From: Lingula anatina
Taxonomy: Eukaryota; Animalia; Brachiopoda
Assembly (NCBI GenBank): GCA_051362555.1
Contig: CM120645.1
Span: 11,470,001 to 11,534,000 of the forward strand
Length of the DNA stretch: 64,000 nucleotides
Reading direction: 5' to 3'
Made by a program: the position numbers and the translations under genes. The notes under the pieces are model-generated. The model was not told where the DNA came from. It worked only from the letters and a program-made list of their open reading frames with translations, and made no database searches. Positions 3,101-50,835 of the stretch are shown here, in pieces. Each line of letters begins with the position of its first letter. The first letter of the stretch is position 1.

Positions 3101-3642
3101 TGACGGACGATCCACTGATGCGTTATAATTTGGGAAAGAAACTTGGAGAAGGGTAAGCTTGTTAATAATTTTCTCCTTACAAAACGGAAAATAAAGAAGA
3201 AAATGTTTGAATTTTATTCACAATAAAAAAAAGAAAAAACCAAACCGTTTTGAAGATGATGTTCCATTAAAAGTATAAGTGCCCCCCCCCCCCCCCAAAA
3301 AAAAAAAATGTTAAGGTCTCGTGTATATCTGGAGGATTTTCCAATTTTTCGTACGTATTACCACGACAAATGATATGGTTAGAATCAAATGTTTATTTCC
3401 AGAGCATCAGGAACTGTTTGCCTAGCTACAGACATTACCACGGGGGGCACTGTGGCAATCAAGATGATGGATTTGGAGAAACAGACCAAGAAGGAAATGA
3501 TCATATCGGAAATTCTGGTAACTGATATACTTTAAGCCAGTATTCTGGCTAAGGAATTGGAGGTTAGGCAGGTGCTCTACTTGTTACGTCCTAAGTTTAT
3601 CGTCAGATCAGTGAATCGGGGTTCATTTGGTGCGTCCGTGCA

Positions 3643-3674
<32 letters not shown>

Positions 3675-4875
3675 CTTGCGTGCGCTCTTGCTGTTCTTCT
3701 CTTTTGTCTTAGTGTCTTCTATCTAATACCAGATTTTCGTAAATGTATTATTTTTGGGTTTCAGGTGATGAAAGAACAACATCACCCACACATCGTTAAC
3801 TTTCTAGACTGCTATTTGGTGGAGAAAGAGTTTTGGGTTGTCATGGAAGTCCTGGAAGGTGGCGCCCTCACCGATGTTGTCTACGAGACGGTCATGACGG
3901 AGGGACAAATGGCGGCTGTTACAAAAGCCTGCATCAACGCCCTGGCGTTCTTACATTCCAAAAACATTATACACAGAGATATCAAAAGTGATAACGTATT
4001 ACTGGGACAAGATGGAGAGGTGAAACTTACGGATTTCGGGTTTTGTGCGCAAATTACTCCGGAGAGAATGAAAAGAAACACGCTCGTGGGAACTCCCTAT
4101 TGGATGGCTCCAGAGGTGGTAGCAAGGTAAGTGAGTTCTTTACTTTTAAATTTCGAAGTTTGTTCTATCAGATGATTTTGCTCGTATTTTTTTGTAAATG
4201 TCTTAGTCTTCGTAAGCGTGCAACTTTGTAATTTTTATAGTTAACACTTGAATTGAATTTTTCTTGCTTTCAATTTTTTTAATCATCAAATCTTTATTAA
4301 TTGTAATATATAGTTCTTAAATTACAAGGCGCATTGAGATTTTAAATGAAATGCACCATATAAAAATTTGTTGTTATTATTATTATTATTATTATAAGGC
4401 CTATTATTATTATCACCCGTGATAGGACATATCTTTTAATGTAAGCGCAGCTGGAACTAACAAAATCCAATTATTATTTATCTTTTTGGACGAATGATCT
4501 ATTAGCAACCTAATATATGCAATTTCATCACTAAATTATGTCCCCAGGAATCATTACGGCAAGAAGATTGACATATGGTCTCTGGGCATCATGCTGATAG
4601 AAATGATTGAAGGGGAGCCGCCATATTTGACTGAAGCCCCCTTGAGAGCCCTATATTTGATCGCAACCAATGGAAAACCAGAAATCAAGTCGGCAAACAG
4701 GCTGTCTCCAGAGGCGAGAGATTTCCTGGACAGGTGTTTGGAGGTGGATGTCGAAAAGCGAGCCTCCGCTGCACAGCTTCTAGACCATCCATTTTTGGCC
4801 AAGGCCAAGCCGCTCACGTCGCTGAAACCTTTAATTGAAAAGGCGAAAGTGTGTGCAGCTAACAGGAGCAGTTAG
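170..4875 (+). CDS. PAK: p21-activated kinase (group I PAK/STE20 family), 5' exons outside the window
   Basis: Exons ~170-347, 1443-1586, 2282-2516, 3086-3152, 3403-3517, 3765-4126, 4548-4875 join in frame at GT-AG sites. Autoinhibitory-segment-like [19 protein letters not shown]...KYMDF; kinase motifs [23 protein letters not shown], and the STE20 signature GTPYWMAPE. The first exon has an alternative GTGAGT donor at 300. Confidence 0.93.
976..1191. mobile_element. MITE-like element with imperfect terminal inverted repeats
   Basis: Left end agggcgtatttccagagcttttagatcgatcta pairs with right end tagatcgatctaatctctgggaatggggtct. The same terminus recurs at 36521-36573. Confidence 0.55.
2584..2858. 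mobile_element. short non-autonomous DNA element (CAGGGGCGG...CCGCCACTG termini)
   Basis: Short inverted termini and G/C runs. A truncated copy of the same left end is at ~43557-43636 (caggggcggatccaggattattcgaagggggg). Confidence 0.55.
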
Positions 4876-21375: not shown

Positions 21376-24300
21376 AAACTTATTTGCAATATTAAACAAA
21401 ATTTACCTGCATAATTATCACTGCTTCCTTATTATTAATCTAGCAAAGAGCTTTACCTTTGGGAGTTTACAGGGAAATATCAACAAGTGTGCCTTACGTA
21501 ATCTCATTTAATGGCCTATTAAAGCAAATGACTTTATAACTCTGAAATTAATCTAGTGATACCCAAGGGTAATTTAAAGACTGACCCACTCAAAGGTCTT
21601 CAGGCCCATAAGTCACACCTTAAGAAAAGCACAAAACCATAATGCCCAAAATAGGAGACTACCAATCCTGATGCAATAATACATTATGTTTAACTGCACA
21701 GTCAACATCAACTTATGCACAACAGGTAACACAGACGAAAGTAAAAGCATAAGGCTTCAGGCCCATCAGAGTTCAAGTTTATACTTAGAAAGTGCCAGAA
21801 TGAGAAAAATGAAAATTTCACAAAAAATGCATAAATACAATAAACATGATAATCCAATAGAGCTGGTTTTCTCATGAGCTGAAGGCCCATCCTAAAAATC
21901 GTACTTATAAGTTTAAAATTATAATAAGTAGCACAGTTTTCTTTTCATAATGTTTGCAGTAGCAGTGCAAAAAGATTGTCAATTTTGATGTAACATTACA
22001 TAATAAATTAGAGAATAATTATCACCAATTTTTGTTTAGTGACTATAAATAGGATGGACATGTAGAAAATATGATTACCATTTGGCTTCATGTCCATGGG
22101 AGCTCCGAGTCCCACAATGAATATGCCAAAAAAGATAATGAATATAACACTAAAATGTATAACTTCCAGAAAAAGAAGCCAATTAGACTGCTTTTTTAAC
22201 TCAGGCTACATTTTAGTCCTGTGTTTCTTTTTTGAAAGTTTGACAGTCATAAGTAACACGGTTTTTCCATAATGGTCATCAAGGCAGCAGCACCAAAAAT
22301 TGTGTTTTCTTCTATTTTCATGCAACATTACATAATGCTTAACAGCATAATGACCATCGATTTTTAATAATAAAATATAAGTGTCATGGATTTTCACAAA
22401 ATGTGACTAGCACGGGTCTTCAAGCCCGTGGAGGTTCTAAGTCGCACCTTGGAAATGCCAATATGTGAAAAATTAAATTTTCACAAAAAACTGTTTAATT
22501 GCCAGAAAAATTTTAAGGTCTTCAGGATCATGGAACTTCAAAGTCACACCTTGAAAATGCCAATAAGTGAAAAATTAAATTTTCACAAAAAAACTGTTTA
22601 ATTGCCAGAAAAATTTACCAAACAGACTGCATTGCCTACTGGAGCTGTATTTTAGTCCCATGTTTCTTTCCTGTAAGTTTGAGAACAGTAAGTGACATGA
22701 TTTTCCTTAAATGGTCATCATGGGAGCAGTGCCCAAAATAGGGGTTTCTTCAAATTTTCATGCAATATTACATAATGTTTTACAGCATAATGACCATCAA
22801 TTTTTAATTATAAAATATTAGTATCATGGTTATTCAGAAAATGTGACTAGCAAAAGCCTTCAGGCCCATGGAACTTCAAAGTCACATATTGAAAATGCCA
22901 AAATGTAAACAATACAGCACTGTTCTGAAATGGGTTTATTTCCATTTTTAACACTTTTTAAACATAAAACAAAATAAACAGTTTACTGCCATTTTTATAT
23001 GACCAATGAAGAAAATTGATGAGATGGGAAAAGTATCAATAGAACAGTTTTAAATGCCCAACTTCCTCCATTCTGAGATTCTGAACATAGTGGATGAATG
23101 CATCTGACAAACTGCAATGATATGAGTTTATTTCCATTTTTGACACTTTATTACACAATACATGATAACAAGTTTACCATCATTTTTACAAAATCAACTA
23201 ACAATGTTGTAAAGATGCAGGAAATGCCAAACAAACACATTTACGTATCTTATTAGTTCAATAATGAGACTGTTAACATGCCTAAGAATTGAATGTGAGG
23301 AAATGTGAAAAAACAGCATTATCTTTTAAAATAATGGACTGATTATGCTGATTTTCAAACTCAACCTGCGTTTTAGTAAGATTGGCCCCTCCTGTGAGTA
23401 TAATGACAATTGGCCAATCTGTTTTTCTTATATTGTGTTATCAGTGTTGCATATATACTGAAAAAAGTGAAAAAAACAGCATAAATTCCCTATAAGTGAC
23501 CCGATTGTGCTGATTTTCGAACTTGACCTGCGTATTATGAATATTTATCAGTTCTGTAAGTTTCAAGCCAAAGGGTAAAACAGCTCTTCATTTAATGTGT
23601 TATCAGTGTTGCAAAAATGCTGAAAAAAAGTGAAAAAATAGCCTAAATTCACTAAAAATGACCCAATCATGCTGATTTTCGAACTTGACCTGCGTATTAT
23701 GAATATTCATCAGTTCTGTAGGTTTCAAGCCAAAAGGTCAAATGGTTTTCCATTTATGGTGTTATCGGTGCTGCATATATGCTGAAAAAAGAGAAAAAAT
23801 AGCCTAAATTCACTAAAAATGACCCAATCACGCTGATTTTTGAACTTGACCTGCGTATTATGTATATTCATCAGTTCTGTAAGTTTCAAGCCAAAAGGTA
23901 AAATGGTTTTCCACTTATCGTGTTATCGGTGCTGCATATATGCTGAAAAAAAGTGAAAAAACAGCATAAATTCCCTATAAGTGACCCGATCATGCTGATT
24001 TTCGAACTCGACCTGCGTATTATGAATATTCATCAGTACTGTAAGTTTCAAGCCAAAAGGTACAATGGTTTTCCACTTATCCTGTTATCGGTGCTGCATA
24101 TATGTTGAAAAAAGTGGAAAAACAGCATAAATTCCCTAAGAGTGACCCGATCATGCTGATTTTCGAACTTGACCTGCGTATTATGAATATTCATCAGTTC
24201 TGCAAGTTTCAAATCAAAAGGCAAAATGGTTTTCCACTTATCGTGTTATCGGTAAAAGTGCACGGCGACGGCGACGGCGACGACAGCGACGACGGCGACG

Positions 24301-27300
24301 GCGACGACAGACGCAGATGATGGCTATATGTACAGACACATCTGTGTCTGTACATAAAAAGTTATCCAAATATTTGATATACAGAAGCAAAAATTTATGC
24401 ATACTATAAAAAAGTGTAACACCTTGTTGTGCACTATCACCTGTCTTTTCTTATCATATCTTTCTCCACCTCTTTTAACTACCTTATCAATTATCCCATA
24501 CCTATTTCCCCTTTCACCTAGCTTATATATATATGATTGCATGTCTTTTTTTCCCTTTAACCAACCTTATTATCTCCTCCAGACACAGCCAGTATGTTCC
24601 CTGTAATAGACCAGCTCACGTGCCAAATAACGTCGTTAAATTTGTGCAACGTTTTTGATGACCAGGCGCTGCTTGTTCCATCATTTGTCCATATTATCAC
24701 ACGACAGTCCTGGAATAATCATATTTTTGTAAATGAAAAACCATTTCACTTACAGCTTATTCAATGATACTTATATGAGCATATACATTATTGGTCTAAA
24801 CTAAGTAAATAATTTTAAATATTGGGAGAAAATTTAATACACAAGGTCTAGAAATACAAAACCCATACTGGGAAAACGGAGGCTACCTGAGAACAACTGG
24901 CAATAACGCTTTTCGGCAGGCCTATAGATGGCGCCCATGCCACATCTCGCACCCAGTCGCTGTGGCCCTCCAGTTTCTGTTCCTCCACCCACTGGTCATC
25001 TTCCTCTCTGAAACAAATATTAACAGAAGTCAGTTCCCTGGCTTAGTTGACTAGGATTTCCAAGAGAGTGCTATAACACTGCTCCTGATAGGGTGGTATT
25101 TAAGTTCTTAGAGAACCTGACTTATTTATTTTATTATTATTTTTTTTTTTTTTTTGTGTGAAACTGGGGCCAGGGATGAGACTGCCATTAGGTGAAAAAG
25201 TTAGAAAATATGGTCTGGGGTCATAGGAAAAATTAGAAAAAAATAGCGTGGGGCCCAGGGGGCTGCCTAGGCCAATGATCTTTTTGGCCCCCAAAAAGTC
25301 AGAAATCCATCAGTAGTCAAAAAACTTTCATCCCTGCATCACAGACCATGGTGAAAAAGTCTCTCTCCATCTGCCCCTATTTTAAATGCCTTTTATAAAT
25401 AAATACAAGCTTTTCATTTTCTCATCATGTCAGAAGATTTGCAATGTGTGGTGCAGCAAGAAACTAGCACAGGGTAAATGACTAGTCTAAATCAGACTAA
25501 AACCTTTTCAATCCATACAATAAACTCATCAGAACAAACCTATAGAATATTTAGCTAAAATAAATAGTTTCAGAGGCCATTCAAATTTAATAAGTGTGGC
25601 AAATTTCAAAGTTTCGCTACAAATTCACCTTTGACAAGCAAGCCTTCCCTTAGATTAGATGTAGACTAGGTCCAAACTTTGAATCTGTAATTTGCTCATT
25701 GATTTACAGGGAGTCCAACCCAAGCAAGCCCAACCATCCAACCCAAAACTTTTGTAAGCCTACCATCCATCTTTGGAAATATAGGCTGCCTTTTAAAGCT
25801 AATGACCGTCCAAATGACGACTGGACATCTCTTTGCGAAAAGCCTTGTAGACAAGTAAAAAACCAGTGCTCCTAAAAGCCACACTTACAAACGGATAGGC
25901 AACGACTTGACTTACTTCCATATTTTGACCAGATTATCGCAGCCTCCAGACACAAATCTCTTCACTAGCTGTGGTTTCTGTCCCCCAGACTGCTCTATCA
26001 GCGACCCCGGAACAACTGCCGGGGCCCAAGAGACAGCATTACAGCCTATCTGAAATACACAGAATGTTTCTGTTAGGAATGAAATCCACTGCGAAAATTT
26101 GTCTCATTTAACGTTCACTTACAGTTCTCAATCTGACCTAGAACCTAATGTATTTCTCTTTAAAAGAAAAATGTTCTTAATCTGTTCTAGGACATTCTGA
26201 AGGACTTCCTAAAAACAGTTCTTGAACTATTGAATTCATTAAAAATAACATAAGAACTGTAAAACAAAATACAACAAATGTTCTAGAATAGATTGAGCAC
26301 TGTAAGCGCATGTTTTAACTTTTAAAAATGAGACAAATTTTCGCAGGGGAAAACCACCTGTGTGTACATTTACAGTTACGACTTGATCTTTTCAATGGAG
26401 AAAATATTCATATCAATTCAAGCACAATATTAACATGGACATGGATAGAACCATGTGCACAGAGGAAAAAACTGAAAATTTAATCAAATAAACACTTGGA
26501 CTGACTTAAAAAGATACCTCTTGTTTATCAAAATTTAAGATTAAGCATGAATGAGGTAAATTTTATTGTTAAGACAAATAAAATGAGCCAGTTTGAACTT
26601 ACTTTGATTTAATTAAAATTCTCCAGGTAAATAATTTTTTCTTTACTAGTCATAAATAATTCAAAATATTAAGAAACACTTAATACTCTGAAATATCTAA
26701 TAAAACTTGAGATTGTCTTATATGACATTTTTTATTTCTATAACTTACTGTGTGTGCATTTGTTATCTTCTTGCTGTCCCAGACACCATCACCTATAAAT
26801 AATCAAAGGGACCTGCTTATCATCTGTTATTGTAAAATATTCTCTACAGTTAAAATGTAGACATAACTTGGTGTAAAAACTTGCCAACAACCATTACTCT
26901 GCCGATCAAATGACCAGATCCATGCCAAAACTATTTGGTCACTTTTTGTTTTCAGGAATTGGTTAACTTGTCCATATCAAAGGAGCTTAACTGTTTTATC
27001 ATTTTATGCCTGGTGTTATTACTCTGTCTCAAAGTTGTGACCAACAAAACTCTCTACTTCACCAAATTCCAAGAAAATTATGAACTTGTTATTAGAAAGT
27101 CTAAAACTCACTGGTGAAGTGCTATGCCCTACCTGTACTAGAAATAACTGATATACAGCCATCAGAGCTGCCACATGCAAACAGCAAGCCAAACTCATGG
27201 GGTGCCCAGCACACTGAGTTCACTGGAACAAATAGCAATAAATACATAAATTATTACACAAATAAATTCACTGTATTTTTATGGTGAATTAAGTCAAAAG

Positions 27301-29866: not shown

Positions 29867-30645
29867 GTATATATATGTCATTTGCATTATTTGCTAGAGA
29901 GTTTATTTCACATGTGGCCCTAAAATGGTGACTTAAAGTACTGAATTGATCAAAATTTTCAAAAAGTGACTTCCTTGTTCTCAGATATGTTTAACTAAAA
30001 GTGATTTACCATGTTATGTATACATGTTGTACATTTTTTTTTTACTTTTGAGTTGTCTTCTGTTACACTGGGAAAGTCATTTACTAGCTCTGCATTGTTT
30101 GAAGGTGTGACTAAAGATGTCAGAAAAATTAACTGGATTTTGATAGAAAAAAAAAAGGTACTGATAATTTTATCTAATATACTTTATTTATTGAAATAAC
30201 CGCATTCAGTGTACTAATGTAGCTTTTACACATACAAAGCCCATTCTCCGCATGCTCGTACGTATGTTAAATCTAAAGGCAACCTAACTATAACAATGTT
30301 TATTACTGTATACTTAGTAAACTTATGCATCTTGGAAGACTAGTATTCATATAGTGAAAATCGTTTTACGTGGTTTTCAAAAGGTCCACAGACCTGCATT
30401 CATGACCTCTTTCTGGGCCTTTTATTTATTTATTTTTTTTTTTTCAGTAAAGCACCATCTCATGTTAAATTTCTAACTTTTATCTGATTTTTCAACTATT
30501 TCATATGGGAGGGCGCTTGTGGATGGTATTTAGTGCTTGTGGACGGTTGTGGTCGGTAATTAGGTACACTGTTGTTTGAAGTCAGTACTGTACTGTAGAT
30601 GTGTTCATGCAAATGCAGATTTTATGTTTATAATTTAGGTGAAGG

Positions 30646-33600
30646 ATGAAGTATTATGCGAAGATAAGTTGTCTCCTCATTAATCATGGGGCAGAGGCAC
30701 AGAGAAATTACTTCAAAACTCACATCCTTGAACCTGCTGGAAAGACTTTAGGAGAGCTGTTTGCCGCCAATAGAACACTGCTGGATGATCTTTATTATGG
30801 GTCACATAGACGTCCGGGGTTTCTATACCAAAGTCAGTATGAGAAGATATTCCCTCAAAGCAACCAAGATCCAGAGTTAAAGGAGTTTGATATCACACTT
30901 CTGTTCCTTCTCACACGTCAACTGCATCCGCAAGGTCCAAACATCCCTGCTCCAAATAACAAGGCTTGGGATTACCCAAACAATCAATGGCATTCACAAC
31001 ATAATGTTCCAAGAAAAACTAAGGCAATAATTCTGATAAAGCATGAGCGCAATGAGCTTGCTCACAGGAAAACTACAGACATGGAAGAATCTGACTTTGA
31101 ATGTTTGTGGAATAGACTATCTAGTGCCATAGTGGAGGTAGGAGGGATGTCTCAAGAAGAAGTCACAGAATTACATGATAAAACTATTGAACCAGAGAGA
31201 GAGGCACGTTATTGTATGTCTTTCCTGAAGGAGTATCTAGAGGAGATAAATATAATGGAAATGATGGAAAGCGAATTTACTAGCCTGAAAGCAGATGTAG
31301 CAGACAAAGTGGAAATTTTGAAGAAAGGGATCTCTGAAATGATGCAGTACTTGGAAGAAGTTTTACATGCTCAGAGTCCAACGTTTATCCAAAATATCAG
31401 GCAACAGCAGTCAGTGACCATACACAACCACTATTTTGAGAATGTTCCTTCAAGCAGTGAAACCCAGCCCAGTGATGCATCTTCTGTTGCAATAAGCTCA
31501 GAGAATACTGGTGTAGGTAAGTGTGCCTTTCAAAGATGAACATTTATTTTCCTGATCAGTTATTCTGCAGATCATCTGACTGTGTTCTGAATCAGAATGC
31601 ATTCTAAAATGCATACAATGTGTAGATAAGCATAGAGTACAATGTATAAATTATAATGCTTTATAATTTTCTGTTTCAGATTAGATAACAATAATATTAT
31701 TTTCTTCTTGATTTCAGATTCAGATCATCACAGGTGGACTAAAGAACTGAGTATTTATTACATTCAGCATTGTCAGTATTTGAAGTGGCCAATCTTCCAG
31801 AAGCTTGTTATCCATGAAATTTTTACTGAGATTGACATGTCAGATAAGTATGGGTAAATATAACAAGCTGTCCCTCATAACAGTATATTACACCATGTTA
31901 AAACAAGTTTGATTTCTTTCCAAACTGTGTCTAAGATATTACAACAGGAAAATAAGACATAGCAGCTGACATAGTATGATGCATGATTATAGCTGGTAAT
32001 TAATTAAGTTTACATTGAGACATCATCATTTCAGTACAAATTTATCATTAACCATATACATTGCAGAGATAACACTGCTTTTAGGTCCCTCCCATTTTTA
32101 TGTACAGACACAGATGTGTCTGTACATATAGCCATCATCTGCGTCTGTCGTCGCCGTCGGCGCCGTCGTCGGCGCCGTGCACTTTTACCGATAACACGAT
32201 AAGTGGAATACTGTTTTTTCTTTTGGCTTGAAACTTACAGAACTGATGAAAATCAGCATGATCGGGTCACTTTTAGGGAATTTATGCTGTTTTTTCACTT
32301 TTTTCAGCATATATGCAGCCCCGATAACACGATAAGTGGAAAACCATTTTAGCTTTTGGCTTGAAACTTACAGAACTGATGAATATTCATAATACGCAGG
32401 TTAAGTTCGAAAATCAGTGTGATTGGGTCATTTTTAGTGAATTTAGGCTGTTTTTTAATTTTTTTCAGCATATATGCAGCACCGATAACACAATAAATGG
32501 AAAACCATTAAACCTTTTGGCTTGAAATTTACAGAACTGATGAATATTCAAAATAGGCAGGTCAAGTTCGAAAATCAGCATGATCGAGCCACTTTTATGG
32601 AAGTTAAGCTGTTTTTTCACTTTTTTCAGCATTTTTGCAACACCGATAACATGATAAATGAAAAACTGTTTTACCCTTTGGCTTGAAACTTACAGAACTG
32701 ATAAATATTCATAATACACAAGTCGAGTTCGAAAATCTGCAGGATCGGGCCACTTTTATGGAAGTTAAGCTGTTTTTCCCCTTTTTTTTCAGCATACATG
32801 CAACACTGATAACACAATATAGGAAAAACAGATAGGCCAATTGTCATTATACTCACAGGAGTGGTCAATCTTACTAAAATGCAGGTTTAGTCCGAAAATC
32901 GGCATAATCGGTCCGTTATTTTAGAAGTTATGCTGTTTTTTCACATTTCCTCAGATTCAATTCTTAGGCATGTTAACAGTGTCATTATTGAACTAATAAG
33001 ATACGTAAGTGTGTTTGTTTGGCATTTCCTGCATCTTTACAACATTGTTAGTTGATTTTGTAAAAATGATGGTAAACTTGTTATCGTGTATTGTGTAATA
33101 AAGTGTCAAAAATGAAAATAAACACATATCATTGCAGTTTGTCAGATTCAATCATCCACTATGTTCAGAAACTCATAATGGAGGAAATTGGACATATAAC
33201 ACTGTTCTATTGATAATTTTCCCATCACATCAATTTTCTTAGTTTGTCATATAAAAATGGCAGTAAACTGTTTATTTTGTTTTATGTTAAAAATGGAAAT
33301 AAACCCATATCAGAACAGTGCTGTCTTGTTTACATTTTGTAATTTTCAAGGTGTGACTTTGAAGTTCCATGGGCCTGTAGACCTTTGCTTGTCACGTTTT
33401 CTGAATGTCCATGTTACTAATATTTTATTATGAAAATTTGATGGTCATTATGCTGTTAAACATTATGTAATGTTGCATCAAAATTTAAAGAAACCCCTAT
33501 TTATGGCACTGCTTCCATGAAGACCATTTTAGGAAAATCATGTCACTTACTGTTCTCAAACTTACAGGAAAGAAACATGGGACTAAAATACAGCTTCAGT

Positions 33601-36600
33601 AGGCAATGCAGTCTGTTTGGTAAATTTTTCTGGCAATTAAACAATTTTTTTTGTGAAAATTTAATTTTTCACTTATTGGCATTTTCAAGGTGTGACTTAG
33701 AACCTCCACAGGCTTGAAGACCCATGCTAGTCACATTTTCTGAAAATCCATGATACTTGTATTTTATTATTAAAAATTGATGGTCATCATGCTGTTAAGC
33801 ATTATGTAATGTTGCATCAAAATAGAAGAAAACACAATTTTTGGTGCTGCTGCCATGATGACCATTATGGGAAAACCTTGTTACTTATGACTGTCAAACT
33901 TTCAAAAAAGAAACACAGGACTAAAATGCAGCCTAAGTTGGAAAAGCAGTCTGTTTAGCTTCTTTTTCTGGAAGTTATACATTTTAGTGAAATAATTATT
34001 ATTATGTCTTTGGCATACTCATTGTGGGACTCGTGGCTCCCATTGACATGAAGCTGAATGGTAATCAACTTTTCTACATGTCCATGCTATTTATAGTCAA
34101 TATTTAAAAATTGGTAATAATTATTCTGTAATTTTTTATGAAATGTTACATCAAAATTGACTAAAATCTTTTTGCACTGCTACTGCAAACAATATGAATA
34201 GAAAACTTATTATTATTTTTAACTTACAAGTATGATTTTTAGGATTGGAATGAACTTCAAATAAGAGAGCCAGCTCAATTGTGTTATCATTTTTATTAAA
34301 TTCATGAATTTTTTGTGAAATTTTCATTTTTCTCATTCTGTCACTTTCTAAATGTAATCTTGAACTCTGATGGGCCTGGAGCCTTATGCTTTTACTTTCA
34401 TCAGTGTTACCTGTTGTGCATAATTAAAATTTGATGTTGACTGTACAGTTAAACATATTGTGTTGTTGCATCAGAGTTGGCAGTCTCCTGTTTTATTTTG
34501 TGCATTATTTTTTTCTGCTTTTCTTTTAGTGTGACTTATGGGCCTGAAGACCTTGGATAGACAAATTTGTGTGGTCAGTCTGTAAATTCCCTTTGGGTAT
34601 TCACTAGGCTAATTTCAGTGCTATAAACTCATTTGCCTAATTAATCAATTAAATTAGGCCATTAAATGAAATTTCATAAAGCACCCTTGTTGATATTTCC
34701 CTGTAAACTCCCAAAGGTTAAGCTCTCTGCCAGATAACATATCGTCCATAATAAGGAAGCAATAGCAGCTTCATTGGAATTATATTTTTTTTTTTCTTTT
34801 TAATTTTTTCTCCAACACTGGCATTTTTAAGATGTGATTTTTAACTCCCATCCACAGGGCCGTAGCCTCCGGGGGGGCAAGGGGGCAGCTGCCCCCCCCC
34901 CCCCCCCCTGGGATTTGAGGTGCAAAAAAAAAAAAATAATAATAATAATAATAATAATAATCAAAAAGGTAAAAAAATAATTGCAAAGTTGATGTAAATT
35001 CTTTGAGAAAATGCACTCATGGCCACTAGACAATCATTCAACAATCTGTTTACAAAGGTGTACTGTTTTTAGCAAACTCAGTTCATGCCAATGCACCAGA
35101 ATGCAGTATTATACATACAGTTTTTAAAAATTTTCCACACCCTGGGAGGGGGACAATCCCTCCCACACCCTACCCCCTCGGGGGGCTTCGCCCCCTCGTG
35201 TCCGCTTACTGCCCCCCCTGGCATTTTGCTCAGGCTACGCCCTGATCCACCTGAGGCTCTGCACATTTTCAGTATTTCCACATAAGCAGTTGTATTGGTA
35301 TTTATGTCTTTAAACACGCTGCAATATTATTTCATGCACTGTCATCTTTTTTCATATATTGGGACTTTCATCATGTGAGTAATCTTATTGAAGGGGTGGA
35401 TTGAGACCATCTTCTGGGTCTCCTGGAAGACAGTCAGATTTTAAAGTTTATATTAACCGGTTTCTGTTGGAAGACCATCAAAATGGAGGATGGATCAACA
35501 AGGATACTTTGGAATACTGTCAGAAAATATCTCTGGATCTGCATCTGTTAGTGACCATGTTACCTGTTGTGCATGATTATAGATTAGCGTTGCCTGACTG
35601 TGCTATAATAAGCATACATTATTGCATCAAAATTGACAAAATGACCTATTTTGCATCTTTTTTTTCTGTTTTTTGTCTGTACATTTGACAGCTCTGCTAC
35701 CTTGTTTAATCATTGTTTTCACTTCATTCAGACTAACACATTGATTTCATTTGGTAGATCATTCAAAATTTTTAGCCCTGAGTTGGATATATTCAACAAT
35801 ATTTTGTTTTTTTCCATATGTCACAGTGCTAAACCTGGGATGTTTAGAACATCATTCCCTCTTAGACCATAGATTGATTCTCTTCTCTGAAAGAGTTCTG
35901 ATACTGCAGGAGGTGCAAGGCCATTTACAACTTTATTTATTTCTGTATCCTTAGCCTACTGATGTGAAGAGTACTTAATCCTGCCAAATTCAGTAGATCG
36001 TGGTAAGAACTAGCATAGTCGGTATACACAAAACAAAGGCCCCTTTCTTGGATCTTTTTTAGTTTTTTTTTTTTTATATTGGCTTCCCTGCAAAAATGCC
36101 ACACGAGTGCTCAGTGGGTAGTAATTAAAATTTGACAGAGCAAAATGTCTGAAAATGCAAAGTTTACATGGAACATTCAGATATGATGAGAGTCTTCTTA
36201 GTACATTTAACTGGCAGACACTTTTCTTGCAAAGTTCAAATATATGCTTATCAAATGTGAGCTGTGAGTCAAAATATACTCCTAATAGCTTGACACTTGA
36301 CTCTGACCTTATGCATTTGCCATCAAAGATAAATTCATCAGATACTTCTTCCTGCTTTTTTCGTATGACAATGATTTGAAACTTTTCTGGATTTGCTTCC
36401 ATTTCATTTGATGTAAAACAAGTCTATTGCATTTTCTGAGTCTGCTTGAAGATCCTGTTTTAGGGTATCCAGATCAGAGCTAGATGTAGCTATTGTGTTG
36501 CCATCCGCATATGATAATGATAGACCCCATTCCCAGAAATTAGATGGATCCAACTAGATTGACCTACTCCCTGTCCCACTGCCAGATATTTGACCATGTG

Positions 36601-38031
36601 GTTGATTTGCCAGCTCCTCCAACAAGAATTCTAATAGAAGGTCAGAGCGGTAGTGGAAAGACTGTACTTGCCTCCGAGATTGCCTTGGACTGGGCTTACT
36701 ACATGAGAGACCGGAAGTATAACTATCACACTGATGGCAGTAGGGAGCTTGAGATCAAGAACTATGTGGAGAAATTTCATTATGTTTTTTTGTTGCAGAA
36801 CATAGATGTAGAAAAGTCAATAGAGGAACATATCTTTGAATTAAACCATTTATTCTCAAAACCCATTGAAAAGCAAGAAATTCAGTCCATTATGCGTATG
36901 ATAGAAAGATGCCAGGAAGATGTCCTTTTCATTGTTGATGCTGATGAAAATTTGTTGCATAAACATAGTGGTGGTGTATATATGTATATATTTTGAAATT
37001 TGCTTTGATTTCTATGTGATTAGCATTTACATGTACATGAGTACTGTAATAAATAGATTTTTTTTCTGTAATTTACAAAATTCAAAGTCATTCCCCATAA
37101 ACAGCAAGGTTATTTGTGAGGGCCATTTTCTTAGTACCAGTACCATCCAGCCCTTGAAAATACATAAAATAACCCTTAAAAATAAATCCACTGGAAGCTG
37201 GGCACTGAGAGCTCTCATCTATAGATAACACAGTCCTTAAAACTACTTTATCAACAGAAATTCCCAGGCTCTGTATTGTGTCTGATAGCTAGGTTCTTAC
37301 TGCATGATAGTCAGAATTTTTTATGAGTTTTAAAATTATTTCCTTACCCAGTGTTATTTTGCATAACCTAATTTTGTAGTATTTGTTTGTTTATTGTCCC
37401 TGCACTTATGTGACAAAAGTTGAGGAACCTGTTTTCTAGCCCATCCATGGTTCTCCTGAAGATATTTTTGAATGTAGAAAGTCACTGTTCCTTAGGGACT
37501 GTGCACCATTTTTTAAATTATTATACCAATTGTCCACCAAGGAATTATAATGAAGTGAAAGACAACACTGTAAGGCCCCATTCGGAATGGAGTTCTTACG
37601 GATCCACCAACTAAATGTGGCTGACCACGGTTCAAAAGCGATGGGGCTAATTCTTGAATGATGGTCTCCCTGACTCAATCCACACGCGCCTTTAAATGGG
37701 TTAAATCTCTGCTCTGAGGTTTATTTGCTAGGCCCCTGCAGCAATGGTGCCTGTGGAGGCCGGGAGACCATCGGGAAGCAGAGGCATCTCTTCTGAACTA
37801 CATCTGAATGGGGTCTAAGTTTTGAAGTAGTAACTAGATCTATATATATCTAGATCTTCATCTGCCTCCTTGATGTCTTTTCAAAACATCATTTCTGCCA
37901 TGCACACCCTTATACGTACCCCTTTGCTATGGGCATATTTTTTTAGATTTTAGAATTTTTTCATGTCCAGAATAAGATTGGGGTCATCACCAAATTTTGG
38001 AGATCAAGTCCAGATACCAGTGCAACGATTT

Positions 38032-38067
<36 letters not shown>

Positions 38068-40282
38068 AGAATGATACATTCAGTATTGTGAGCCAGAAAA
38101 TGCAAACACACACACACATGTACACACATATACAGATCAACACACTCTGAAATCTGTGAAGGGGGATTTCAAAGTGATAGCAGTCATTTCTATAACTTTG
38201 TGTTTTAGGGATCACATGTCCCACCGCCAGATATTTGACCATGTGGTTGATTTGCCAGCTCCTCCAACAAGAATTCTAATAGAAGGTCAGAGCGGTAGTG
38301 GAAAGACTGTACTTGCCTCCAAGATTGCCTTGGACTGGGCTTACTACATGAGAGACCGGAAGTATAACTATCACACTGATGGCAGTAGGGAGCTTGAGAC
38401 CAAGAACTATGTGGAGAAATTTCAGTATGTTTTTTTGTTGCAGAACATAGATGTAGAAAAGTCAATAGAGGAACATATCTTTGAATTAAACCATTTATTC
38501 TCAAAACCCATTGAAAAGCAAAAAATTCAGTCCATTATGCGTATGATAGAAAGATGCCAGGAAGATGTCCTTTTCATTGTTGATGCTGATGAAAATTTGT
38601 TGCATAAACATAGTGGTGGTGAAATTTTGGAATTGATAAGAGGTGAGCGATACTGTAGATCTACAGTTGTTATTACGTCTAGACCCCTGCAGTATAGGCA
38701 TCTGCGTGACTTTTGTGACTTTCATGTTTGTTACAACAATGGCTTTGACCCCATCAAAGGTAAATCAGTACAGTTTGTAAAAAACTATGCTCGAAGCACC
38801 AAAGTCAGTGAGCAAGTATTTGAAGACTTGATTGAGAAAATAGAGAAAAACACTGTTGTGGCAGACTTAGCAAAGTGCCCCTTGTTTTGTTTACTGTTGT
38901 GCATGTCTTACCATAGTGCTCATCAGAAAGTGACTAGAGAAATGGGCAGAAAAGAAAGAAGATTACTACCGGTAGTATCTCAGGTACAAGGTTTGGCAAA
39001 TTTGTTTTCTAATCTCGTAGATGATATGATGGTTAGGGTTTTGGAACCAAGAGACCAAATTGCCCCCACATTGAATATATTGTGCAAGTATTCTTGGGAT
39101 GCACTGGTGAAAGGTACAGAATATTTAGCTGAGGATGAGGATAGTATGTTAGATTTTGTATTAAGAAAGGGTCTCTTGCAGGAATGTGACATTGGCACAG
39201 TGCGAGAACAGAAGAAAGTTATTTCATTTCCTCACCAAAGTATAAAGCTTTTCCTTGCAGCCAAATACATGACTGATGTTGCCTTTGAGGAGTGTTTTCT
39301 CCATTTTCCAAATCTTCTCAGAAGTAGAAATTCTGTTGCATTGGACCCAAATATATCTGTCTCATTATGGCAGTTAGATATTTTTTTGATCACTTTGTCT
39401 GGACTTTTGGCTACCAGAGGGGACTTCATTAGACTAAAAGAATTTTTCCTCTGTGTCCAGCAATCCATCATTGAGACTTTACCTGTAGGGTCAGATGGAC
39501 AACATCCTCTTGGAATTTCATCTTGGAGTTTAAATGATCCTTCCATTGTGCTAATTCTTCATTGTTTATATGAAGCCTGTGTCTCCACCTTGAATGATGC
39601 TGGAGAAGTAGCAGAAAGCATGTCAGAGATTATGAAAGTTATGGCATATGACCATATGAGTGATATTACTGCTGAATCTAAGTCACCCTTGGACCCACAG
39701 CCATCCTGGGACCCACAGACATCAAGGACCCCACGGTCTTGTTTTTGGGTCCTTGCTAGGCTGTTAAAGTATAAACCTGAAAGACTATACAAGGTTGACA
39801 TAGACACAAGCCTGATTGATTCAAAGCAGGTAAAAAGTGACCTTGCTGAAGGTATCAGCAAATGCAAAGATTTGATGGTATTCCTTACATGGGAAACTGT
39901 TGAAGATCTTCAATTGTTTCTGAGTCATATTTGCAAAAAAGAAAGTGACATTACATATCTTTCATGCAATGGGATTAGGAATAAGCAAACAGGGATCAAT
40001 GTCGAGTCATTTAAGAACATGCATCTGCCCAGACATTTTTCATTTAGGTATTGCAATAATACACAATTAAATGACACCATACTATCCATATTCAATTCAT
40101 CGACAGATTCCTATAGAATTGATATGGAAGATTGCAGCATCAGCAAAAAAGCTTGCAACCAGTTTGGGAAATCCTCTGTATCACATAATTCAAAGTCCTG
40201 GGATTTATTTGTTAAAGTGGAGGAAGAAGAGGGATATTCTTTAAGAGGCATTGTGAGGCATTGTTTCTCCGACTTTTTTTAA
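30646..40282 (+). CDS. NLR-like protein: DZIP3-type HEPN domain + helical linker + NACHT NTPase + short degenerate repeat tail (~1026 aa)
   Basis: Exons 30646-31516, 31718-31853, 38209-40282 join in frame (phases 1 and 2; 3081 nt), with an in-frame TGA just before the ATG. HEPN motifs YAKISCLL, FDITLLFLL, RNELAH, DFECLWNRLSSAIVEVG. NACHT motifs: Walker A GQSGSGKT, Walker B LFIVDADE, sensor VVITSRP, LAKCPLF, winged helix SFPHQSIKLFLAA, HD2 LHCLYEA. Confidence 0.85.
32094..35707 (-). mobile_element. Helentron/HINE-like element, copy B (intron of HEPN-NACHT gene)
   Basis: Reverse complement of 20472-24360: hairpin at 32099-32128, (GCCGTC)n, ~161 bp units at ~32180-32950 (one internally deleted), and the terminus tgtctgtacatttgacagc...cttgttt at ~35674-35707. 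Confidence 0.75.
34855..35243. mobile_element. MITE-like insertion nested in HINE copy B
   Basis: Termini cagggccgtagcct / aggctacgccctg, flanked by atcca on both sides. Absent from copy A. Confidence 0.6.
35940..36515 (-). mobile_element. degenerate non-LTR retrotransposon (CR1/L2-like) reverse transcriptase fragment
   Basis: Minus-strand YADGNTI (decayed YADD), then MEANPEKFQII, VKLLGVYFDSQLTFDKHI, LNVLRRL, SNFNY; frameshifted. Confidence 0.85.
36571..36976 (+). pseudogene. intronic duplicate of the first ~400 bp of the NACHT exon
   Basis: Near-identical to ~38217-38621 (GQSGSGKT...LFIVDADENLLHKHSGG) with only a few substitutions. Lacks the native splice acceptor and ends in a stop at 36996. 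Confidence 0.9.
37573..37817. mobile_element. small MITE, related termini to the 976-1191 element
   Basis: aggccccattcggaatggagttc ... gaactacatctgaatggggtct imperfect inverted termini, flanked by TAA-like triplets. Confidence 0.55.
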
Positions 40283-44100: not shown

Positions 44101-45615
44101 CTACAAATCGCACACAATTCTGAAGAAAAGATGGGCCAGTGTCATTCCAGCATGACCTTCATATTTTCTTGGGTCATTATTTTTTGGACATAGAAAATGT
44201 GCTTCATCACATGGGGTCCATTTCATTGGGTTAAGAATATTGAAACCGTCTATTATTTCTACACCGTATTTTACCAGCTTCTCTGCGATGATTTCATTGA
44301 TCGCTGCAACCATGTAATCATTCCCGTCCATCTGGCCCAAAACCCTCGGCAGAATATTTATGTATATAAGGCGGATGTTTGCTATATTAGGGTTTTCCCT
44401 AACATGGCGTAGGAAGTCCACAAAATGGGGAAGAGAATGTTTTACAAGATTGTAGGCACTCTGGTTTGTAAGCACTAATTCGTGTATCCCAAACCCCATT
44501 AAAACTACATCATCTCTGGTGGCGGGCTTTTTGTCAAATCGCGAGAAAAGTGATCGGATTGCTTTTTCGCAGTGGGAAGCATGGGGGGTCCACTTAAATA
44601 CAACTTTGCTTAGCCCTATAATTTTCTTTCGATTCTCTCTGGGGTTCATGTCATTTACACTAGTGGTAACATGGACTGTATCAAGTGAAATATGCCTATA
44701 ATGCGACAATAGCTGATTCAAGTAAATACTAAGATATCTAAGGTGTGAATCTCCAAAGATTCTAAAAGTGGTTTTTCTACTGTAACATTTCCAAAGGTCT
44801 GCCTCACTTATGAACTCAAAAATGCATTTGGTTTTAGTTCCCCATTTCCACCGTCCTCGAATATTCCACCAGCGTCCACTGAGGTATTCCGCAATGTTGG
44901 TTACATAACAGTATCTTTTTGTCTTCTCTTTCTGCGATCCCCATTTCCCGACGGAACCATAATTAAAAGAGTGTATAATTCTGTGAATTCTGTTTGGATG
45001 ATGGCGTCTTTCGTTGTCGTGGTGTCTGAACGCTTCAAAGTCCGTGTAGTCTAAGTATATTGTACCCTGTATAGTAGACTGAACATCACAATAAGCGACG
45101 TAGGTTCCATTAAAGAAATCTCTCACCGGACACACCATGTATTCATTTCCTTTTACCTCAATTCGGAAATTACTTCCCCCGGATGACAGCACAGTCTTAT
45201 TTGCCGACACCTTTTTTCTTTCTTCTATATAAATATACAGTATATGGTTGTTCGACATTGTCACGTTGAAACTGTACTTGTATGCCGCATTGTTGTCGAT
45301 ATGGCAATGTTCCCCTTTGCCGTCAGATTGAGGGTCGCAACTCGACCAGGCACGTTCTAGCTGTACTTTTTCAGAAATACCATTCCTCACCCTGTCACGT
45401 CCATCCACTGGATCATTCTGTCGATGTTCTTGGACCGCCTCATGTTTGAATTGCCCATCAAATATTATTGTTTTCTTAAAAGGTGGAGCTTTTTTTAATA
45501 AACGATGCAAGGTAATGTCTCTATTGTGAAAGTTCAGCATGATGAAGACGGTATATACCGCAATGCACACGACTGCTATAGCATAAACTGCCTGATCTGA
45601 GCTCCTCTTTCTCAT
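44101..45615 (-). CDS. NXPE-like / PC-esterase (SGNH-fold) type II membrane protein, copy 1, single-exon ORF (504 aa)
   Basis: Short basic N-terminus plus TM helix; GGSNFRI...VRDFFNGTY Ig-like motifs of the NXPE family; catalytic IFGDSHLR (GDS) and C-terminal DEAH (DxxH). Confidence 0.8.
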   Translation of the reverse strand: MRKRSSDQAVYAIAVVCIAVYTVFIMLNFHNRDITLHRLLKKAPPFKKTIIFDGQFKHEAVQEHRQNDPVDGRDRVRNGISEKVQLERAWSSCDPQSDGKGEHCHIDNNAAYKYSFNVTMSNNHILYIYIEERKKVSANKTVLSSGGSNFRIEVKGNEYMVCPVRDFFNGTYVAYCDVQSTIQGTIYLDYTDFEAFRHHDNERRHHPNRIHRIIHSFNYGSVGKWGSQKEKTKRYCYVTNIAEYLSGRWWNIRGRWKWGTKTKCIFEFISEADLWKCYSRKTTFRIFGDSHLRYLSIYLNQLLSHYRHISLDTVHVTTSVNDMNPRENRKKIIGLSKVVFKWTPHASHCEKAIRSLFSRFDKKPATRDDVVLMGFGIHELVLTNQSAYNLVKHSLPHFVDFLRHVRENPNIANIRLIYINILPRVLGQMDGNDYMVAAINEIIAEKLVKYGVEIIDGFNILNPMKWTPCDEAHFLCPKNNDPRKYEGHAGMTLAHLFFRIVCDL

Positions 45616-45939
45616 TTTTGAAAAGAATAATTCAACTGAAAGATTAAAAAAGTATCCTTTTTTCCAAGTTTTCCGTCTGCTACTTTTTTTCTGCGATGAC
45701 GATTATTACAGAATGCTCTTCTTATTTGGTAACTTTAGCAAGTTACCGCCAACTTATTAAATGCCACGTTTCTGACTATATAATAACTGGAATTGCAGAG
45801 GTGGGAAGATAGTTTTTAAGCAATAAACATGCAGCATCCGATTGTAATAAAATTTTTTAGCCCGAAGGGATATGATTCGGGGATATTCTACGTAAAGGCG
45901 TAATGCATCATATTATTTTTATAGCTTAACATCACACTA

Positions 45940-48375: not shown

Positions 48376-49926
48376 TTACATATCACACATGATTCTGAAC
48401 AAAAGATGGGCCAGTATCATTCCAGGATGGCCTTTATATTTGCTTGGGTCATTATGCACTGGACATAGATAATGCGATTTGTCACAATCATTCCACTTCA
48501 TTGGGTTTAGAATATAAAATCCATCTATTATACCGTATTTTAACATCTTTGCTCTGATGATTTCATTGACCGCCGCAACCACGTAATCATTCCCATCCCT
48601 TTCACCCAAAATTCTCGGCAAAATATTTAGATATATTAGACGGATGTTTGCAGTTTTAGGATCTTCCCGCACACTGTCTAGGAAGTCCCCAAAATGACCA
48701 ATAGCATATTTTATAAAACTGTAGGCATTTGGATTATAATGCACTAATTCATGTATCCCAAACCCCATTAAAACCACATCATTTCTAGTAGCCTGCTTGC
48801 TTTGAAATCTAGAAGAAAGTGAACTAATTGCTTTTTCGCAATCTGAAGCAAGGGGAGCCCATTTGTATATAATATTGCTTAGACCTATAATTTCCTTTCG
48901 GTTTTGAACGGTGTGAGTGGAATTTAAAACAGGGGAAACATGAAGGTGAGCGGAATTTACAACAGGGGAAATGTGAAATGCATACGGTGAAATATGCCTA
49001 TATTGCGACAATAGCTGATTCAAGTAATTACTGAGATATCTAAGGTGTGAATCTCCAAAAATTCTAAAAGTGGTTTTCCTCTTGTAGCATTTCCAAAGGT
49101 CTGCCTCACTCATGAACTCGAAAATGCATTTGCTTTTAGTTCCCCATTTCCACCCTCCTTGAAGTTTCCACCAGCGTCCATTAACGTAATTCTTGATGTT
49201 TGCCTTAGAACAGTTTCTGGTTTCTGATCTTATCTTCTGTTTCACCGATTTTTCGGGGTAATCATAGTGAAACCCATATATCCTTTTGTGGATTCTACAG
49301 GGAAAAGTTTTTAATCGTTTTCTTTTAGTATCATGGTGCCTGAACGCTTCAAAGTCCGTGTAGTCTAAGTATATTGTACCTTGTATACTAGAATGAACAT
49401 CACAATAAGCGACGTAGGTTCCATTAAAGAAATCTCTCACCGGACACACCATGGATTCATTACCTGTTACCTCAATTCGAAAATTACTTCCCCCGGATGA
49501 CAACACGGTCATTTTTTCCGACACCCGTTTTCTTTCTTCTATGTAAATGTACAGTATATGGTTGTGAGACATTGTCACATTGAAATTGTACTTGTATCTA
49601 GTATTGTTGTTGGCATGGCAGAAATCACTTTTGAAATCAGTCTGCGGGTTGAAATTCGACCAAGCACGTTCTAGCTGTTCCAGTTCAGCAATGCCATTTC
49701 TTACCCAGTCGTGTTCATCCGCAAGATCATCCATCTGATGTACTTGGGCCACTTCATGTTTAAATTGCCCATCAAATATCATTGTTTTCTTATTTTTTTT
49801 CAATAAATGATGGAAGGTAGTGCCTCTACTATAAGAATTCAGCATAATGAAAATAGTATAAACCGCAATGCACACGACTGCAAGTACCATAGCAGAAACT
49901 GCCTGAGTTGAACTCCTCTTTCTCAT
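48376..49926 (-). CDS. NXPE-like / PC-esterase type II membrane protein, copy 2, single-exon ORF (516 aa)
   Basis: Paralogue of 44101-45615 with TM, GGSNFRI, DFFNGTY, GDSH and DKSH motifs. Confidence 0.8.
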   Translation of the reverse strand: MRKRSSTQAVSAMVLAVVCIAVYTIFIMLNSYSRGTTFHHLLKKNKKTMIFDGQFKHEVAQVHQMDDLADEHDWVRNGIAELEQLERAWSNFNPQTDFKSDFCHANNNTRYKYNFNVTMSHNHILYIYIEERKRVSEKMTVLSSGGSNFRIEVTGNESMVCPVRDFFNGTYVAYCDVHSSIQGTIYLDYTDFEAFRHHDTKRKRLKTFPCRIHKRIYGFHYDYPEKSVKQKIRSETRNCSKANIKNYVNGRWWKLQGGWKWGTKSKCIFEFMSEADLWKCYKRKTTFRIFGDSHLRYLSNYLNQLLSQYRHISPYAFHISPVVNSAHLHVSPVLNSTHTVQNRKEIIGLSNIIYKWAPLASDCEKAISSLSSRFQSKQATRNDVVLMGFGIHELVHYNPNAYSFIKYAIGHFGDFLDSVREDPKTANIRLIYLNILPRILGERDGNDYVVAAVNEIIRAKMLKYGIIDGFYILNPMKWNDCDKSHYLCPVHNDPSKYKGHPGMILAHLLFRIMCDM

Positions 49927-50835
49927 TTTTGAAAATAATAATGCAATTGAAAGTTCAGACTCGAGTTACCTTTTCTTCCAAGTTTTCCTGTCTACTACTT
50001 TTTTTTTCTGCGATGACAATTATTACAAAATGTTCTTCAAATTTGGTTGCGTCAGGAGATTACTGTCAAGTTATTAGATGTCACGTGTCTGACGATTAAC
50101 TAGTTTTGCAGACGTTGATTGAAGAAAAGATAACTTTCCATGCAATATGCTCACGCAACTCCTATGTGAATATGGAGAAATGTGTTATAAAATTGACTAT
50201 GTATGCCGTGTCATATTAAATAGTGTTTGGCTCGCGGGAATGTATGGTGCGCGGATCCTGAAGCCTCAAGGTATTATATCCCCTTTATAGCTAAACATAA
50301 CACTATTGCCGGTTCATGTTTAAATGAGATATGGGAATGGCTTTTAATATTCAAACATATATACATTTCCGTCTATACATTTCCCTTCCTCTTCTGATCA
50401 CCATTTTTGTGCATACAGTCGCGTTCGACAGATGTCGTTCAACACATGTCTACCCTGCAGGCCCTATTTTGATTTTATTTGCGATTGTTCGAGTGGCTTT
50501 CCTTGGTTAAAAAGGATAATTGTTTTTATGAAAGTTGCCGAATTTTCGGCGACATTCAACCTACAAGTTTCAAACCATATTTTTGCTTTCATATTTACAG
50601 AGTGACTACGTTTGATTAGATTATATTCTCAAAAAACCTTTTTGTTAAATATTTTTCGGAGCTGTCCCGTTTGAATATAAGCCAGCTTTACAATCTAGTT
50701 TTTATTTTACAACTTGATATATTATCAAACCTTTTCCTCTTGGTATTCCTCTTATTATTATTATTAATATTATTATTTGCTTCTGCAGTTAAATCTATTA
50801 CAAAAAGTTTTTCTTTGGTTTCGTCAGGAGATTTA

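Follow-up and report, generated by a model that had tools for sequence, protein, structure and literature searches.

The 64-kb stretch of Lingula anatina DNA analysed here (assembly GCA_051362555.1, contig CM120645.1, positions 11,470,001 to 11,534,000; hereafter the window, whose own numbering is used throughout) is intron-rich animal DNA with a guanine plus cytosine content of 31-40%. It contains a genuine three-exon animal gene, read on the plus strand, which encodes a HEPN-NACHT fusion with a predicted short leucine-rich repeat (LRR) tail. The coding part of exon 1 (30646..31516, 871 nt) carries the ATG, the HEPN domain, a helical stretch and a serine-rich linker, and ends at a phase-1 donor. 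Intron 1 (31517..31717), of the GT-AG type and in phase 1, separates this putative effector exon from the NACHT module, the segment directly before the NACHT core being encoded by exon 2 (31718..31853, 136 nt). Within intron 2 (31854..38208), which spans 6.4 kb, lie a repeat element and a duplicate of part of exon 3. Exon 3 itself (38209..40282, 2074 nt) encodes the NACHT nucleotide-binding domain (NBD), helical domain 1 (HD1), the winged-helix domain (WHD), helical domain 2 (HD2) and the short LRR, and closes with the stop codon TAA.

GT donors and AG acceptors were found at the proposed exon borders, and the spliced length of 3081 nt corresponds to 1026 residues with one terminal stop. Direct joining of exons 1 and 3 is out of frame. 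Frame compatibility alone is weak proof of exon 2, because the interval has 1477 AG..GT mini-exons of 100-180 nt, and 62 of these would likewise leave an open frame. The 136-nt exon is taken to be the real one because homology to an uncharacterised L. anatina protein, LOC106172040 (XP_013408071.1, here P0001; 1016 residues), falls on exactly these three exons. In a tblastn search, residues 1-281, 286-325 and 326-1004 of this protein, the best match to the locus at 74-76% identity, mapped in order to exons 1, 2 and 3, with identities of 74%, 70% (E 1e-11) and 74%, respectively. An earlier reading of this DNA from its letters alone (the sequence-only reading) had joined open reading frames (ORFs) of 297 and 708 residues through a 136-nt exon into a protein of about 1026 residues, and the GT-AG borders, the single stop and the tiling by P0001 bear it out. 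A second in-frame acceptor for exon 2, at 31724, would give 1024 residues and is indistinguishable from that at 31718; the acceptor pyrimidine fraction is 0.74-0.79 at exons 2 and 3. At the 5' end, an AG acceptor lies just upstream of the ATG and an in-frame TGA stands two codons before it, and the start position is common to the Lingula paralogues P0001, P0018, P0019 and P0020. AATAAA occurs at 40282 and 40345, at the end of exon 3. Homology alone rules out another LRR exon farther downstream, the tail of P0017, a relative described below, giving a best E of 1.2 against the window by tblastn.

Four runs of raw RNA reads were aligned to positions 30300-32090, the region of exons 1 and 2, and yielded 3, 0, 27 and 31 reads. 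Because only 1 of the 61 is at least 99% alike to the locus, their source is a paralogue, a different allele or a sister species. In runs X7 and X9 exons 1 and 2 are covered and the intron bins 31560-31679 and 31860-32090 are empty; one read of run X1 lies within intron 2. Three reads of run X7 leave exon 2 at 31851 and enter the start of exon 3, with 26 of 28 positions alike and a P0001-like translation. Reads of a close relative thus support junction 2 (31853>38209) at the proposed place. The sequence-only reading had asked for both junctions to be sought in reads; the other, junction 1 (31516>31718), gave no joint reaching the three-read threshold in the four runs on 30300-32090.

Two further features of the reads were observed. 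Five of the relative's reads in run X9 jump at 30921 from the HEPN exon straight to Walker A, out of frame and near a short shared sequence, and these likely derive from a deleted paralogue or allele without the putative RNase motif. Reads also heap on a short 5' stretch, 30480-30650, where loose ends at 30515-30517, 30552-30558 and 30643-30646 suggest upstream untranslated exons that differ among paralogues.

The head of the protein is a DZIP3/hRUL138-like HEPN domain (30742..31212, residues 33-189), which matched Pfam HEPN_DZIP3 (PF18738) with E 7.8e-29 and 100.8 bits against a cutoff of 27, over profile positions 2-144 of 144. Within it lies the R-N-x3-H motif RNELAH (31048..31065, residues 135-140), the putative RNase site. 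A phmmer search recovered 169 relatives at E 1e-3, and conservation was counted on the best 150 of these, most of them 28-40% identical to the query. R135 is kept in 149 of the 150, N136 in 144, H140 in 142 and D82 in 148, figures that are somewhat inflated because the homologues were chosen by similarity to the query. Arg and His are kept together in 142, with a spacing of x4 in 53 and x5 in 89; one of the eight misses, P0018, does carry the motif, its scored absence being an artefact of sequence slicing. Near-invariance of these four residues in divergent homologues is the pattern that would be expected of catalytic residues.

The model of the HEPN domain, built from a 104-row alignment, is all-helical with a predicted local distance difference test score (pLDDT) of 95. 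In a wide VIA fold search of 48,161 solved chains, the HEPN RNases AbiF (8vz6, Z 6.4) and Csm6 (4rgp, Z 6.3; 6tug, Z 5.7) took ranks 1-3 at root-mean-square deviations (rmsd) of 4.2-10.4, Roquin took rank 4, and RnlA and LsoA ranked lower, all with Z below 8. This outcome is consistent with a HEPN fold, short of proof. A Foldseek search of the same model against the PDB returned nothing at E 1e-3. No solved HEPN structure was matched by sequence, either by phmmer or by profile, the profile matches coming from trailing nucleoside triphosphatase (NTPase) columns. The PADLOC models gave no match to exon 1 and a P-loop match only to exon 3. A tree built on 26 HEPN domains places that of the locus with six L. 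anatina proteins in a Lingula-only clade (support 100/99). The HEPN domain is likely an RNA-cutting enzyme. Another HEPN of the same Lingula clade belongs to P0021 (L. anatina LOC106156274), where a hydrophobic stretch links it to a peptidoglycan-recognition amidase domain (Pfam Amidase_2); this protein may be a receptor of an unusual kind or else a fusion made by the gene model.

The body of the protein matched Pfam NACHT with E 7.7e-12 and 45.8 bits against a cutoff of 26.7, and its Walker A, GQSGSGKT (38285..38308, residues 362-369), is intact. Sensor 1 (ITSRP), the PL motif of HD1 (KCPLF) and the winged-helix His (FPHQS) are kept relative to the other NACHT rows. The best PDB matches by sequence were NLRC4 and NLRP3, and in a Foldseek search of the exon 3 model 36 of 36 among the matches listed were NLR or NLRP-containing structures. 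The vertebrate proteins NLRC4, NLRP3 and NOD2 share the NBD-HD1-WHD-HD2-LRR body; they signal through CARD or PYD adaptors, whereas the locus has a putative enzyme in that slot.

Walker B, VLFIV-DADEN (38567..38596), keeps the first Asp, and its extended part is unlike DGhDE. It reads DADEN at the locus, DVDEN in P0001 and DIGET in P0017, as against DG[YLWA]DE in 17 of 17 other alignment rows outside the clade of these three (P0109, which lacks a Walker A match, was left out). PMC7583971 defines a Walker B by an Asp, then a small residue, then one more acidic one, and D-A-D-E-N at the locus fits that definition. The canonical DGhDE string of NOD1/NOD2-type NLRs, whose acids prime water for hydrolysis (PMC11430502), is absent at the locus, and the protein would not be classed as a NOD1/NOD2 type with a canonical extended Walker B. 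It is a fair inference that the altered motif would slow hydrolysis, though the acids stay at +2 and +3, and the protein would therefore be a poorly resettable switch. An analogy with a particular NOD2 Walker B mutation was dropped, a literature search for that mutation having found nothing. The change appears to be old and tolerated, because P0001 and P0017, together with its full form P0167, are also non-canonical.

About five to six LRRs of the ribonuclease inhibitor type are predicted in the tail (39728..40219, exon-3 residues about 507-670). This region is modelled as beta-alpha repeats with pLDDT 54-81, the best-predicted part of the exon 3 model, and the predicted model aligned in VIA to ribonuclease inhibitor 1a4y over 156 residues (Z 11.8, rmsd 3.1). 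Atlas look-alikes of the tail were LRR clusters at 0.79-0.83, which serve as leads only. The tail is thus a predicted LRR, and would complete a tripartite HEPN-NACHT-LRR layout. Between HD2 and the LRR, an 18-bp tandem duplication (39687-39731) produces a Pro-rich insert of about nine residues, and P0001 is without this insert.

Most of the layout had been anticipated by the sequence-only reading. It had described a DZIP3-like HEPN with an intact R-x4-H and a NACHT module with an intact Walker A, both of which were recovered; the HMMER comparison that it proposed placed HEPN_DZIP3 and NACHT above their cutoffs in the spliced protein, and of the RxxxxH motif, whose loss in homologues it had named as a refutation, Arg (149/150) and His (142/150) are conserved among the listed homologues. 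The RNA cleavage on oligomerisation that it proposed is plausible, and had been put forward in print before. Three features had escaped it: the LRR at the C-terminus, the unusual Walker B and the copy, 405 bp long, of the start of exon 3.

Identity between the locus protein and P0001 is 84% in HEPN, 86-88% across NBD-HD1-WHD and 64-65% in HD2 and the LRR, which is what a conserved engine combined with a variable sensor would be expected to show. The two proteins are alike in their three segments (HEPN_DZIP3, NACHT and a short tail), in R-N-x3-H and in the type of non-canonical Walker B. They differ in about a quarter of residues, mostly in the linker, HD2, the LRR and the last 35 residues, P0001 being an orthologue or a paralogue. 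Apart from P0001, the one protein recovered by a search with exon 3 was P0017. The full form of the latter, the Logan protein P0167, has a CARD-like - NACHT - LRR order; its head matched Pfam CARD at E 0.006, below the cutoff, aligned pairwise with the P0035 CARD at E 9e-6, and did not resemble exon 1 (E 0.71 at best). P0167/P0017 is the nearest NACHT, with a non-canonical Walker B, and is alignable with the locus through the first LRRs; it differs in the CARD-like head in place of HEPN, and in an LRR and tail that are longer by about 300 residues.

A NACHT tree was built from 16 rows, four long, broken or duplicate rows being left out; some of its branches are long and its groups were named after the tree had been viewed. 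The locus, P0001 and P0017 form a 100/100 clade in this tree, and a constraint uniting the HEPN-bearing Lingula NACHTs without P0017 was rejected (p-AU, approximately unbiased test, 0.0002). This points to at least one exchange of HEPN and CARD-like heads on the locus NACHT lineage. The head slot would be an effector slot, because P0167/P0017, the closest by NACHT, carries its CARD-like head there, and the placement of HEPN on a single exon ending at a phase-1 intron would fit exon shuffling.

The HEPN-NLR architecture and the RNase hypothesis are already published (PMC3710099, PMC8662601, PMC9646362). DZIP3-like HEPN fused to NACHT and LRR was described in 2013, when RNase L-like or antiviral cleavage was proposed for HEPN-NACHT proteins (PMC3710099). 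HEPN fusions number 17-83 per anthozoan species (PMC8260672), HEPN-NLRs have been named in nine invertebrate taxa in a paper that repeats the RNase idea and calls for molecular tests (PMC8662601), and the pearl oyster has more than 50 HEPN-NLR genes, with Rx4-6H in 194 of 202 domains and the RNase idea again repeated (PMC9646362). Proteins with the order DZIP3/hRUL138-like HEPN - NACHT - LRR/TPR/WD40 are thus known from bivalves, cnidarians, Aplysia and amphioxus (PMC3710099, PMC8260672, PMC8662601, PMC9646362, PMC10236652, PMC9334734, PMC13012124), in line with the statement in the sequence-only reading that the domain pair occurs in invertebrates. HEPN-NACHT fusions are reported to be missing from tunicates and vertebrates (PMC13012124), and the mention of HEPN in PMC13581612 concerns only a non-STAND protein. 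Our own domain scan of 41 of the 150 listed homologues, mostly longer than 700 residues, found NACHT, NPHP3_N or NB-ARC in at least 32 and none of these in 8; the tails of the scanned proteins were LRR, WD40 or TPR.

The locus resembles the other invertebrate HEPN-NLRs in domain order, in an Rx4H with Asn after the Arg and in lineage-specific expansion; it differs in having DADEN and not DGhDE, a shorter LRR, and a divergent NACHT clade that includes a CARD-headed protein. What is new at the locus is modest, namely the non-canonical Walker B, the short LRR and the apparent HEPN/CARD-like head exchange. With the HEPN RNases AbiF, Csm6, RnlA/LsoA, Las1 and RNase L it shares the R-phi-x3-H motif and a weak fold match. 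With bacterial NACHT proteins, among whose predicted effectors HEPN is counted (10.1101/2022.07.19.500537), it shares a nuclease effector, putative at the locus, on a STAND switch. It differs from both groups in that no sequence match to solved HEPNs or PADLOC models was obtained. The active site of Las1 is formed by two juxtaposed motifs (10.1101/760058), and HEPN proteins typically homodimerise (PMC12165695). A literature search, from which subscription journals were mostly absent, found no biochemical test of any animal HEPN-NLR, and the sequence-only reading likewise knew of none.

From the three-exon frame, the domain order, the R-N-x3-H motif, the intact Walker A and the relative's transcription across junction 2, we infer a course of action for this protein. 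It would be a cytosolic immune receptor in which ligand-triggered oligomerisation pairs HEPN domains into an RNA-cutting site, a proposal to which we give an even chance. The NACHT module would keep the protein closed until a trigger arrives, and the LRR/HD2 end, the fastest-changing folded part, would meet the pathogen or damage signal. Nucleotide exchange would then lead to oligomerisation, and the helical and Ser-rich linker would allow two HEPN domains to come together in a single composite site, like that of other HEPN RNases. The protein might then cut RNA of the host or of a virus, and so stop translation or kill the cell without a death-fold adaptor.

Several points weigh against this proposal. 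The extended Walker B is non-canonical in a way limited to the locus clade, the LRR is about 300 residues shorter than in P0017/P0167, and Pfam LRR gave no match on the locus protein. The exon 3 model was built from a three-sequence alignment and has a mean pLDDT of 50. The fold matches of HEPN are weak, and a Z below 8 may reflect a common helical arrangement; the inflation of the motif counts has been noted above. With only 1 of 61 reads at 99% identity or more, expression of this exact allele is unsupported by reads, and our literature search did not find RNase activity of any DZIP3-like HEPN.

The HEPN domain might instead bind or sense RNA, or scaffold partners, without cutting, making the protein an RNA-responsive NLR or an adaptor. 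Roquin, whose HEPN-like part we take to be non-catalytic, stands at rank 4 in the VIA fold search. Sensor and RNase roles are both left open in PMC8662601, and PMC10236652 terms the domain RNA-binding. A non-cutting domain is, however, at odds with the near-invariance of Arg, Asn and His in the 150 listed divergent homologues, with the retention of Rx4-6H in the pearl-oyster domains cited above (194/202; PMC9646362) and with the place of the domain in the slot that the CARD-like head takes in P0167/P0017. We regard this explanation as unlikely, while placing it first among the alternatives.

Next in order, and also unlikely, is a role as executor or helper. Its LRR being reduced and its NACHT poor in hydrolysis, the protein would supply the RNase, while a different NLR would act as the sensor and nucleate it. 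Sensor-helper pairs of NLRs exist, for example NAIP-NLRC4, and the short and degenerate LRR, the Walker B change that is specific to this long-branched clade and the sister protein with a CARD-like head would all suit such a role. On the other hand, the strongest divergence from the close relative lies in HD2 and the LRR (64-65%), which is a better fit to a sensor, and tblastn found no second NLR in the 64-kb window.

A third alternative, which we hold to be improbable, is that this copy is in decay: as one paralogue of a birth-and-death family, it would have a switch that no longer works and a sensor cut short. Its odd Walker B and short LRR, the recent partial duplication inside intron 2, the low read depth and the five relative's reads that join the first half of HEPN to Walker A out of frame are what decay might produce. 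Yet the 2074-nt exon and the two others remain open and the catalytic motif is intact; P0001, at about 75% identity, agrees in Walker B type and is of similar length, the Walker B of P0017/P0167 is non-canonical too, and the identity profile against P0001 resembles purifying selection. That the two ORFs are separate genes and their fusion a reading artefact is highly improbable: the 6.4-kb intron with repeats, the unseen junction 1 and the ease of finding compatible frames (62/1477) would allow it, but one annotated protein (P0001) tiles all three exons, reads cross junction 2, and a STAND domain lies on the same chain in 32 of 41 scanned homologues.

Intron 2 contains a 405-bp copy of part of exon 3 (36572..36976, plus strand), which duplicates 38217-38621, from Walker A to Walker B, at 98.8% identity (blastn) with five substitutions, one of which alters the residue five after Walker A. 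The pyrimidine fraction of its acceptor is 0.37, against the 0.74-0.79 of exons 2 and 3, and the copy is likely a dead fragment. Its use as an alternative last exon, giving a protein of about 480 residues, was rejected on account of the poor acceptor. This recent duplicate could mislead assembly and read mapping. A repeat element of about 2.7 kb occurs twice in opposite orientation, at 32095-34761 and 21422-24360, with the copies 82-89% alike and with a 161-162-bp tandem array; it is probably a non-autonomous transposon.

Downstream of the gene, two tandem long ORFs on the minus strand (44101-45702 and 48376-49965) encode proteins of about 500 residues with an N-terminal hydrophobic anchor, which we take to be NXPE-like; a weak GDSL/SGNH-like Pfam match (E 0.03) was found in the first copy only. 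The best match of the 44101-45702 protein, L. anatina LOC106176723 (43%), lies on a contig different from that of P0001, and synteny with P0001 is unsupported for this reason. At 3615-4130 lies a Ser/Thr protein kinase exon (Pfam Pkinase E 4e-36), presumably PAK/STE20-like.

The question of RNA cleavage by such proteins has been in print since 2013, and the locus is no easier a test case than its counterparts in Nematostella or oysters. What it adds is a compact single-exon HEPN with a confident model, together with the apparent head exchange on a NACHT lineage with an altered Walker B. We offer only tentatively, as a doubtful extension, the idea of an animal RNase resistosome, that is, an NLR ring whose output would be the direct destruction of RNA, arisen by a CARD/HEPN exon swap at a phase-1 intron and acting as a one-way executor with a remodelled hydrolysis motif; were it true, sister switches in brachiopods would lead to different outputs, death-fold in one case and nuclease in the other. 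More generally, if HEPN-NLRs cut RNA when activated, many invertebrates would possess an adaptor-free, enzyme-armed branch of NLRs, with a logic like that of the bacterial STAND-nuclease systems.

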